DNA of 64,000 bases from Acidobacteriota bacterium (lineage in GTDB: Bacteria; Acidobacteriota; Vicinamibacteria; Vicinamibacterales; 2-12-FULL-66-21), in the NCBI GenBank assembly GCA_046735335.1, contig JBKPTE010000004.1:6406-70405 (forward strand), given 5' to 3'. The notes under the pieces were generated by a model. That model made no database searches. It was given only the letters and a program-made list of their open reading frames with translations, and was not told the origin of the DNA. Made by a program: the position numbers and the translations under genes. Below, one piece after another: positions 47,220 to 48,369 of the stretch; the stretch's first letter is position 1, and each line of letters opens with the position of its first letter.

Positions 47220-47235
47220 TGGCACGCGGGTTGCC
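47220..47235 (+). promoter_or_regulatory. sigma-54 promoter match TGGCAC-gcggg-TTGCc
   Basis: Near-perfect consensus, 80 nt upstream of ATG 47314 of the sigma-54 activator gene. Confidence 0.65.
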
Positions 47236-47313
47236 CCTTCCCTGATAGCGATCCGTTCGGGATTCGGGGCGAGGCCGCTGACGCCATGCGGCGACACGTA
47301 ACCTGAGGACACC

Positions 47314-48369
47314 ATGTTTGCCAATCCGCCATCGGCGCACCAGGACCTCGTAATCGGGCACAGCGCGAGGATGCGCGCGGTGTTCGAGTTCGTGAACGTC
47401 ATCACCCGCAGCGACAGCACGGTGCTCATCACCGGCGAGAGCGGCACCGGAAAGGAAGTCATCGCCAGGCTGATTCACGACACGAGCCGGCGGAAGCATC
47501 GGCCGTTCGTCGCGGTGAGCTGTGCGCTCTTCTCGGAGACGCTGATCGAATCGGAGCTCTTCGGGCACGAGCGCGGCGCCTTCACCGGCGCCATCAAGGA
47601 TCGTCCAGGGCGATTCGAGATGGCGGAGGGAGGCACGATCTTTCTCGACGATGTGGACGATGTGCCGCTGGCAATGCAGGTGAAGCTGCTCCGCGTGCTC
47701 CAGAACCGCACGGTGGAGCGTCTGGGCGGAACGCGTCTGGTTCCGATCAACGCTCGTGTCCTGGCCGGCAGCAAGCGCGATCTCAAGCAGATGGTGGCGG
47801 AGGGCAGGTTTCGCGAGGACTTGTACTACCGGCTCAACGTGCTGCCGCTCACGTTGCCGCCGCTTCGCGAGCGGCGCGAAGACATTCCGGTGCTGCTCGA
47901 CGCCTTTCTCGAGCGCTTCTTCCGCAGCCGTGGCGATCCGAAGCCGGCCGTGTCCCCAACGGTCGTGCAGGCGTTCACGGACTATGCCTGGCCCGGCAAC
48001 GTTCGTGAGCTCGAGAACGCGTGCGAGCGGATTGCGCAGACGAATACGTGCGGAGCCGTCCGGGTCGGCTGCGTGGCAGCGACGATCCTGCTGGCTGCAC
48101 GCGGGGACGGGGCTCGGCCCGTTCCGCCAGCGGCGGCTTCAGCAACCGGCGCGATTTCGCTCGACGATCGTCTGCGCGAGCTGGAAGCGAACCTGATTCG
48201 CTGGGCTCTCGAAGCGACCCACGGCAACAAGTCCAAGGCGGCAGCGCTGCTGAACATCAAACGATCGACGCTCGGGGATCGGATCAGGCACTGCGGACTG
48301 CAGCTGGCGCCGAGCGAGATGGACGACAAGGACCCATCGCCCGCCATGCAGGGACCCGAGTCGCGTTAG
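47314..48369 (+). CDS. sigma-54-dependent transcriptional activator (bEBP) lacking an N-terminal sensory/receiver domain
   Basis: 351 aa. The AAA+ domain starts about 12 aa from the N-terminus. It has Walker A GESGTGKE, the sigma-54 contact loop GAFTGA, and a C-terminal Fis-type HTH ([20 protein letters not shown]). Confidence 0.9.

Follow-up and report, generated by a model that had tools for sequence, protein, structure and literature searches.

To our knowledge, the control of bacterial enhancer-binding proteins (bEBPs), the activators of sigma-54 promoters, is understood for only a few members without an N-terminal sensor, namely PspF and HrpR/HrpS. PspF consists of the AAA+ core and a helix-turn-helix (HTH) domain only; it is made from a sigma-70 promoter and is held inactive by PspA, and its enhancers lie in a divergent intergenic region together with the promoter of its own gene, so that PspF binding feeds back on its synthesis. 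HrpR and HrpS of Pseudomonas syringae, which are devoid of a sensor domain as well, are tandem paralogues that form a hetero-hexamer and belong to a type III secretion cluster; their output is set by their expression level and by a protein acting in trans, their partners are HrpV and HrpG, and they constitute the second tier of a cascade. Cascades in which one bEBP activates the sigma-54 promoter of another are also known from NtrC and NifA, from FleQ/FlrA and FleR/FlrC, and from the Nla/Act/Mrp proteins of Myxococcus, and in the NtrC-to-nifLA cascade NifA is made from a sigma-54 promoter driven by another bEBP. Here we describe a gene for a 351-residue sigma-54 activator in a 64,000-nucleotide stretch of DNA from an Acidobacteriota bacterium of the order Vicinamibacterales (assembly GCA_046735335.1, contig JBKPTE010000004.1, positions 6,406 to 70,405; hereafter the window). 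This activator lies behind a sigma-54 promoter of its own, termed P_ebp, and probably forms the lower tier of a two-bEBP cascade, in a family whose input may be linked to redox or iron-sulfur (Fe-S) status.

That the open reading frame (ORF) at 47314-48369 encodes a genuine bEBP without an N-terminal domain, and that it stands behind a real sigma-54 promoter, can be stated with high confidence. Pfam assigns residues 13-179 to Sigma54_activat (PF00158, E 7e-68), residues 185-248 to AAA_lid_14 and residues 287-325 to HTH_8, while no domain was found in residues 1-12 and neither a GAF nor a PAS domain anywhere in the protein. The Walker A motif GESGTGKE is intact, and the GAFTGA sigma-54 contact loop, located within residues 81-93, is invariant in 58 aligned homologues. 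An N-terminal extension with a missed sensor domain was considered and rejected, because an in-frame TAA (47299-47301) four codons 5' of the ATG closes the upstream frame, and the upstream frames of the orthologues, which belong to the same length class (335-355 aa), are likewise closed. The sequence-only reading of this DNA had also described the protein as lacking an N-terminal regulatory domain and an upstream start, and our analysis bears this out, the TAA making a stronger case than the overlap with the divergent gene on which that reading relied. A Shine-Dalgarno sequence (GAGGA, 47305-47309) precedes the ATG. None of the NCBIfam equivalogs scored above its cut-off for the activator; NifA (TIGR01817) was the second-best NCBIfam match (343.3 bits, cut-off 528.85), and the pspF models TIGR02974 and NF008622 reached 255.5 (cut-off 443.55) and 219 (cut-off 529), respectively. 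NifA was also the best match among solved structures (9qq6_C, E 3.5e-80). The closest genome loci are from metagenome-assembled genomes (MAGs) of Vicinamibacterales/Acidobacteriota, with 61-76% identity to the activator, and the top metagenome homologue (P0001, 97% identity) is encoded on contig L081 from JGI soil sample 3300003324. Comparison of the activator gene with that of L081 gave a ratio of nonsynonymous to synonymous differences (pN/pS) of 0.105, indicating purifying selection despite the lack of the nifU gene that accompanies it in most relatives.

The sequence-only reading had pointed to the best sigma-54 promoter match of the window upstream of the ATG, and this element has held up well. 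TGGCACGCGGGTTGC (47220-47234) is the sole exact TGGCAC-N5-TTGC sequence on either strand of the 64 kb, and its 3' end lies 79 nt from the activator ATG. By chance 0.07 exact matches are expected, and at least one occurred in 7 of 100 shuffles; this statistic is modest for P_ebp alone, and conservation is the decisive support. A canonical -24/-12 element was found at the homologous place in about 16 loci (L081, L082, L084, L085, L001-L010, L012, L017 and L021), where it is kept across 67-97% protein identity while the flanks diverge, the GG and GC being invariant and the substitutions falling in the spacer. Transcription would start near 47245 and produce a 5' untranslated region of about 68 nt. 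Relatives can be grouped into three locus classes according to the position of nifU, a gene for a small NifU-type protein. In class A the sigma-54 promoter is followed by nifU and then by the bEBP gene; in class B nifU and the bEBP gene point away from each other, with 80-135 nt carrying sigma-70-like elements between them; and in class C nifU is separated from the bEBP gene by a gap of 11 nt, both lying behind other genes. Loci of classes B and C carry a strong sigma-54 promoter just downstream of the bEBP gene. It is very improbable that the TGGCAC-N5-TTGC element of the window is fortuitous or non-functional and that the gene is transcribed from an unrecognized promoter of the sigma-70 type. 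Such a view could draw on the shuffled windows with an exact match, on the poor definition of acidobacterial sigma-70 promoters and on the sigma-70-like intergenic elements used by class B relatives, but it is opposed by the conservation pattern just described and by conserved enhancer-like palindromes at canonical distances. Moreover, no sigma-70-like promoter was detected in 46900-50300. No terminator was detected around the activator gene and Rfam gave no matches in the window. A site for integration host factor (IHF) between the enhancers and P_ebp was also considered, and no claim is made for it since the CGCAAATC block conserved in relatives does not agree with WATCAANNNNTTR.

Two types of palindrome accompany these promoters. 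When 16 class A promoter regions were aligned, conservation upstream of the -24/-12 element fell into three blocks. The D type (GSGGA-N4-TCCSC) occurs there as two copies about 20 bp apart (e.g., GGGGAATATTCCCC in L007). The D pair of the window (Table 1) is homologous in all class A loci and unchanged in L081, and it is also located 21-55 nt upstream of P_acs, the sigma-54-type promoter that diverges from P_ebp across a compact region of 126 bp. The P type (GCCGGA-WW-TCCGGC) was found in all three classes upstream of sigma-54 promoters, and its distance to the promoter varies. A variant of it abuts the -24 element of P_ebp; this variant is likewise unchanged in L081, lies about 105-118 nt upstream of P_acs, i.e., at enhancer distance, and is matched in relatives by equivalents at 10-25 nt from the -24 element, such as GGCGGAAATCCGTC (L001 and L082) and CCGGAAAACCGGC (L002 and L006).

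From the promoter upstream of the gene the sequence-only reading had concluded that the activator is positively autoregulated. We consider a cascade, in which a second bEBP is the main driver of P_ebp, to be the better reading, and we hold it with moderate confidence. The D-type motif is limited to class A loci, i.e., to nifU-bEBP units with a sigma-54 promoter, and upstream of these units the relatives carry a module consisting of a PAS histidine kinase, a single REC protein and a 455-aa REC-AAA+-HTH regulator of the NtrC type. This module is immediately upstream in L002-L007, L009, L010, L021, L085 and the P0111 contig; the sequence of L008 begins inside the 3' end of the NtrC-type regulator gene, and L001 has the module at a distance of 5 kb. 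D-type sites were also found 20-45 nt before the REC gene of the module in L001, L005, L007, L010 and L021. The cascade is therefore favored over self-activation, because D sites co-occur with the NtrC-type module and mark the module's own upstream region. In addition, the HTH recognition helices differ between the sensor-less bEBP and the NtrC-type regulator (LNRDQIRYRI in one of them), and within the sensor-less family the helix is invariant. The simplest assignment would thus be that D sites are read by the NtrC-type regulator and P sites by the 351-aa activator.

Autoregulation would mean that the activator drives P_ebp itself through its enhancers and is gated by an anti-activator encoded elsewhere, in the manner of PspF/PspA or HrpS/HrpV. 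Several observations speak for it: the activator is the sole bEBP in the 64 kb, three GGAA/TTCC-type palindromes precede P_ebp, one of them a variant of the motif that follows the family, D and P sites have a common CGGAA core that one protein might read, an exact D-type site is found before the neighboring pyruvate:ferredoxin oxidoreductase (PFOR) operon, and L082, L084, L012 and L017 carry the promoter and the D sites without an adjacent response-regulator bEBP. However, D sites are limited to the class that carries the NtrC-type regulator and occur upstream of that regulator as well, and autoregulation is not a trait of the family, since classes B and C have neither a sigma-54 promoter nor D sites upstream of nifU and the bEBP gene. 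A pure positive loop would furthermore be without a trigger. As for the gate, no PspA- or HrpV-like gene was recognized near the activator, either among its neighbors in 34-62 kb (Pfam) or in any annotated related contig, which agrees with the sequence-only reading on this point, and the partner that is conserved is of the NifU type and in some proteins fused N-terminally, in the position of a cis-acting regulatory domain. Taken together we regard self-activation gated by an anti-activator as rather unlikely.

The candidate input of the family consists of two parts, a Cys cluster within the activator and the NifU-type partner. Directly after the sensor-II sequence VRELEN the family carries the motif ENAC-x6-[C/N]-x-C-x6-C, which is present in the protein of the window. 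Among 139 homologues (57-97% identity), conservation of C237, C246 and C253 is 99%. At position 244, 68% of them have Cys and 29% have Asn, the protein of the window having N244; the ancestral motif is therefore one of four Cys (ENAC-x6-C-x-C-x6-C). The cluster is absent from all bEBPs of 45-49% identity that were fetched from other taxa. A second signature is found in Walker B. All 139 family members read FLDD(V/I) here (FLDDV in the window, residues 111-113, 47644-47649) and thus have Asp at the position of the catalytic Glu, compared to LDE(I/V) in 81 of the 83 other bEBPs of the fetched loci. This exchange, which keeps the carboxylate, suggests a slow or unusually gated ATPase. An AlphaFold2 model of the activator, built on a shallow alignment, had a mean pLDDT of 61 and was too poor for Cys geometry. 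By analogy with known redox- and metal-sensing bEBPs, the cluster and NifU may together provide a redox or Fe-S input, although for the cluster by itself we put forward a metal or redox role only tentatively.

The distance from promoter to ATG is 260-350 nt in relatives, compared to 94 nt in the window, and the additional space is filled by a 74-aa ORF of the NifU/Nfu C-terminal type (Pfam PF01106; NCBIfam similarity to NifU/NfuA) with the motif GMCxGCPSAHMTL. Based on tblastn, nifU adjoins the bEBP gene, in tandem or divergently, in 25 of 26 evaluable genome loci, and it is also found beside it in L082, L084, L085 and the P0008 and P0111 contigs. It is absent in the window, L081 and L026; no NifU-like sequence was found anywhere in the window by tblastn, and local alignments of the 79-nt leader to nifU of five relatives were weak and inconsistent, leaving no recognizable nifU remnant there. 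The lineage of the window is thus a streamlined derivative that has lost nifU, an upstream REC gene and a Usp gene, as has its 97% relative.

Fusions were searched for with the last 126 residues of the activator against 1.84 billion representative proteins, yielding 154 matches at E <= 1e-10. In two of these, P0132 and P0145, a Pfam NifU domain (31 and 45 bits, respectively; cut-off 27) is fused N-terminally to AAA+-lid-HTH via a linker of 30-35 aa. A follow-up search added P0271, 69% identical to P0145, and P0292, which belongs to the P0132 lineage and comes from a Vicinamibacterales MAG (GCA_039919055.1). The fused proteins, among whose loci are L087:6001-7353 and L088:1758-2990, thus represent two independent lineages, each seen twice and in separate sources (P0132/P0292 and P0145/P0271; 50-69% identical to P0145), and on the contigs of P0292 and P0271 the neighboring genes are intact and a separate nifU is missing. 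P0303 was set aside as a fifth fusion, being a probable frameshift artifact of an error-prone assembly. The neighbors in L087 are an MtrB/PioB porin, multiheme cytochromes and an acyl-CoA synthetase with a GNAT domain. Since two independent lineages fuse NifU N-terminally, it appears to be a regulatory module of the family that is usually split rather than mere cargo, and we consider it likely to be a functional partner. We found no paper that links NifU-type proteins to bEBPs or deals with the present family.

These results change the picture of how the activator may be controlled. The sequence-only reading had compared it to PspF and HrpR/HrpS as a sensor-less protein under an anti-activator and had called the controlling input unknown. 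The absence of an N-terminal domain stands, but the family carries an invariant Cys cluster and a NifU-type module, which is a neighbor in 25 of 26 evaluable loci and a fused domain in two lineages, as candidate input, and NifU is merely absent from this genome region. A search among conserved neighbors of orthologues, proposed as a way to candidate anti-activators, did reveal a conserved neighbor, which is of the NifU type and, when fused, takes the position of a cis-acting domain. In another interpretation, the activator would be constitutively active with an output set only by its concentration, the Cys cluster would be structural (e.g., for Zn), and NifU would be a co-transcribed Fe-S helper for PFOR, the GltD-like protein and cytochrome maturation. 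In line with this, purifying selection acts on the gene even though NifU is missing, 29% of the members have Asn in place of one Cys, the fused NifU domain of P0132/P0292 has lost its CxxC although the four Cys of the bEBP are retained, and the regulon is rich in Fe-S proteins. On the other hand, the pairing of NifU and bEBP persists in tandem with an 11-nt gap, divergently and in fusions while every other neighbor and even the promoter type change, a pattern expected of interacting partners rather than of cargo; the three Cys that other bEBPs lack are 99% invariant at identities of 57-97%; and the retention of a degenerate NifU domain at the N-terminus points to a regulatory or structural contact with the AAA+ core. 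We therefore regard constitutive activity with NifU as cargo as unlikely.

The genes surrounding the activator, mapped by GC3-based gene finding together with Pfam and NCBIfam, and the sigma-54 sites from a weighted -24/-12 scan of the window are listed in Table 1. The three best sigma-54 scores in the 64 kb (P_acs, P_ebp and P_abc) all lie within 3 kb of the activator gene, and P_omp and P_pfor are lower-scoring matches directly before genes, giving five -24/-12 elements within 9 kb with palindromes upstream.

Table 1. Promoters, palindromes and genes around the sigma-54 activator gene (positions in the window).
Feature	Coordinates	Strand	Details
ADP-forming acyl-CoA synthetase gene with GNAT domain (ACS)	44269-47064	-	931 aa; Pfam, NCBIfam; divergent from activator
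P_acs, sigma-54-type TGGCACGTCTTCTGCT	47078-47093	-	joint top score; divergent from P_ebp; 13 nt before ACS ATG (47064)
D-type pair GCGGAAATCTTCGC + GGGAACATTTCCGC	47114-47127, 47134-47147		centered about 100 and 80 bp upstream of P_ebp -24 GG
Promoter-proximal P-type variant GGCGGGAAACCGTC (GGCGG-GAAA-CCGTC)	47197-47210		10 nt upstream of P_ebp -24
P_ebp, sigma-54 promoter TGGCACGCGGGTTGCC	47220-47235	+	-24 GG at 47221-2, -12 GC at 47233-4
Sigma-54 activator (bEBP) gene	47314-48369	+	351 aa; AAA+ 13-179, lid 185-248, HTH_8 287-325, Cys C237/C246/C253
Dihydroorotate-dehydrogenase-like (DHOD-like) gene	48366-49292	-	NF005741 above cut-off; convergent with activator gene
Outer-membrane beta-barrel (OMP) gene	49295-49915	-	206 aa; Pfam OMP_b-brl; first gene of omp-DHOD-like operon
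P_omp, sigma-54-type TGGTACGGGGTCTGCT	49937-49952	-	21 nt before omp ATG (49915)
Exact P-type palindrome GCCGGATTTCCGGC	50003-50016		between P_omp (50 nt) and P_abc (28 nt)
P_abc, sigma-54-type TGGCACGCTCCGTGCT	50045-50060	+	joint top score; 111 nt before ABC ATPase gene
ABC ATPase gene	50172-51044	+	behind P_abc
PFOR gene	51022-54672	-	downstream of GltD-like gene
GltD-like Fe-S flavoprotein gene	54684-56270	-	precedes PFOR
P_pfor, sigma-54-type TGGCGTGCTCGTTGCT	56300-56315	-	29 nt before GltD-like ATG (56270)
Exact D-type palindrome GCGGAAAAATCCGC	56399-56412		84-97 nt upstream of P_pfor

P-type sites are concentrated at such promoters: 16 of the 64 matches fall within the 1.2% of sequence that lies no more than 170 nt upstream of strong sigma-54 matches, where 0.77 are expected (binomial P of about 5e-17), and their density in family loci is 12 times that of other acidobacterial loci. 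The reverse complement of the palindrome between P_omp and P_abc (GCCGGAAATCCGGC) is found in L001 upstream of a sigma-54 promoter before a signal-peptide gene. P_acs is kept in L081, and in L004 and L005 a sigma-54 promoter precedes a Usp-ACS operon; P_omp has the counterparts TGGTACGCGGTCTGCT in L081 and TGGCACGGCCCCTGCT in L084; and P_abc is kept in L081, its counterpart in L084 (82% protein identity), TGGCACCGTCCGTGCT, preceding a Usp gene. The ACS protein combines GNAT, CoA-binding, succinyl-CoA-ligase-like and ATP-grasp domains, as in ADP-forming acetyl-CoA synthetases, and its gene also neighbors the bEBP gene in L001, L004, L005, L007, L010, L081, L087 and the P0008 and P0111 contigs. 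The OMP gene is also kept in L081, L084 and the P0008 contig. The DHOD-like and activator genes overlap in their stop codons (48366-48369) with no terminator detected between them, and the same tail-to-tail layout without a gap is found in L082, L084 and the P0008 contig. Neighbors of the bEBP in relatives additionally include Usp, flavodoxin, multiheme cytochromes, cytochrome c552 and an MtrB/PioB porin. Together with these, PFOR, the GltD-like protein, ACS, the DHOD-like protein and OMP suggest a set for low-oxygen or fermentative metabolism and anaerobic respiration, and low oxygen would then be the signal. In Acidobacterium capsulatum, a member of a different order, usp genes and a sensor kinase are up-regulated under nanomolar O2 (PMC11636273).

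Combining these lines we propose the following mechanism, which as a whole we consider about evenly balanced between right and wrong. In the family, the NifU module and the Cys cluster would form a split redox or Fe-S input. In the lineage of the window, in which nifU is lost and one of the four Cys is Asn, control would have moved largely to the amount of activator made. Transcription of the activator gene would start at the sigma-54 promoter at 47220, and the protein at the D pair would most likely be another one, an NtrC-type response regulator controlled by a PAS histidine kinase; this regulator, encoded next door in relatives, would lie outside the window here, resulting in a two-tier cascade. 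The activator in turn would bind GCCGGA-WW-TCCGGC and drive the ABC gene as well as the OMP/DHOD-like operon, and probably also the gene for the ADP-forming ACS. The same low-oxygen set would include the GltD-like/PFOR operon, though this operon has a D-type site at its canonical enhancer distance, and the P variant abutting the activator's own -24 element could mediate feedback on its own synthesis, either positive or negative.

Several points weigh against this mechanism. The response-regulator bEBP, REC and matching kinase of the relatives' module are not encoded anywhere in the 64 kb, so the upper tier is presumed here, and rpoN is absent from the window as well. The assignment of sites to proteins rests on co-occurrence, the proximal site of the window is a degenerate P type, and the D site before PFOR could be the activator's own because the activator is the only bEBP in the window. 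The P and D motifs were partly derived from regions used in the enrichment test, and loose versions of both patterns gave no enrichment across the window; the patterns were informative only with an A/T-rich center and when considered relative to sigma-54 promoters. Furthermore, NifU might serve Fe-S assembly in PFOR-type enzymes as co-regulated cargo, the Cys cluster might hold Zn in a structural role, and with the Glu-to-Asp exchange in Walker B the activator can only be presumed to be a competent ATPase.

A number of additional observations were made at this locus and in relatives. The -12 element of P_acs ends 13 nt before the ACS ATG, so that the mRNA may be leaderless or nearly so, or another start (GTG 47037) may be used; the close spacing is repeated in L081, and in L004 and L005 the Usp gene lies between promoter and ACS gene. 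Transcripts started at P_omp would extend antisense into the activator gene, a possible negative feedback. The 97% relative L081 has no DHOD-like gene between bEBP and OMP genes (L081:6724-6772 versus window 48366-49295), and therefore the gene content of this island turns over even between near-identical genomes. A 556-aa ORF at 48366-50036 (minus strand) was rejected as a single gene since its N-terminal half is an Arg-rich non-coding frame, an artifact of high GC; its C-terminal 308 aa (DHOD-like) are coding and the rest overlaps the OMP gene in another frame. At the other end of the window, an exact-core P-type palindrome GCCGGAGATCCGGC (269-282) lies 123 nt upstream of a weaker sigma-54-like element GGGCACCTCTCTTGCG (405-420), which precedes the gene at 477-1985 and may indicate a more distant member of the regulon, and a very long ORF of 2888 aa with a coding-type GC3 pattern extends over 10700-19363 (plus strand).

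In the class C loci L014:11140-11230, L022:11158-11250 and L027:11837-11930 a common leader, GGTGAAGTGGGGCGCGTTGC...CGTGGGGACCGTCGG, directly follows the sigma-54 promoter 3' of the bEBP gene. This may be either a structured RNA or a small-ORF leader, and a conserved small protein (MVDREKVLAVLR...) comes next. Likewise, the sigma-54 promoter 3' of the bEBP gene in L011, L016, L018 and L019 (L018 of class C, the other three of class B) is located about 30-50 nt before the gene of a conserved protein of about 135-152 aa (...VRVLGPD...AAYER...ELRVYE...LLDALE.AC...) that looks like a small GNAT.

More broadly, it is possible, if somewhat doubtful, that Vicinamibacterales use an undescribed class of sigma-54 activators in which a split or fused NifU Fe-S module and a Cys4 cluster at the AAA+ lid/linker couple Fe-S, redox or O2 status to a low-oxygen regulon, the locus of the window being a natural, sensor-deleted lower tier of a two-bEBP cascade. 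Such a regulon may comprise PFOR, ADP-forming acetyl-CoA synthetase, DHOD-like proteins, Usp, multiheme cytochromes and Mtr-type porins. Thousands of natural sequences with a compact Cys cluster are available in this family, its candidate partner was picked out by gene adjacency and gene fusion, and natural variants without the partner exist; with partner candidate and partner-less variants at hand, an Fe-S-linked AAA+ switch can be tested directly. In addition, the family indicates that a sigma-54-based regulon for low-oxygen conditions may exist in Vicinamibacterales, which are among the most abundant and least studied soil lineages. Should the Cys cluster prove to be structural and NifU to be cargo, the locus would still present a clean two-tier bEBP cascade with crossed enhancers in a divergent region of 126 bp.

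Compared to the known systems, the activator resembles PspF in having no N-terminal regulatory domain, but it differs from it in the sigma-54-type promoter, the lack of a PspA gene nearby, scores far below the pspF cut-offs, the Cys cluster, which PspF does not have, and the NifU-type partner of its family. In contrast to the tandem HrpR/HrpS pair, the window encodes a single bEBP copy among metabolic neighbors and no type III secretion genes; two tandem copies were found only in L010, where two Cys-cluster bEBPs (L010:10001-10987 and L010:11651-12601; 69% and 69% identical to the protein of the window) are arranged similarly to HrpR/HrpS. NifA provides the closest solved structure (9qq6_C), yet the activator lacks a GAF domain, nif genes around it and a score above the TIGR01817 cut-off. 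The oxygen-responsive NifA of alpha- and beta-proteobacteria contains four Cys (PMC10590331). The compact cluster described here is located in the same region and may or may not be homologous to them; the NifA sequence compared was that of the solved 9qq6_C, which has a single Cys there, one residue further towards the N-terminus (ENCLER). A dedicated NifU-type partner or fusion is a feature of the present family and not of NifA. OrpR of Desulfovibrio vulgaris carries a [4Fe-4S] sensor with three conserved Cys in its N-terminal PAS domain and is constitutive when PAS is deleted (PMC8359166), and OrpR and PexR of Myxococcus xanthus similarly sense redox state or peroxide via a protein-bound Fe-S cluster or metal and are constitutive without the sensor (PMC8359166, PMC12754779). 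Whereas the metal site of OrpR and PexR is in an N-terminal PAS or GAF domain, the candidate site of the present family is at the C-terminal edge of the AAA+ lid, and its N-terminal module, if there is any, is of the NifU type. Finally, relative to the known bEBP cascades, the lower-tier activator in the window has no receiver or GAF domain and its trans-acting module is lost, so that the cascade would be its main control.

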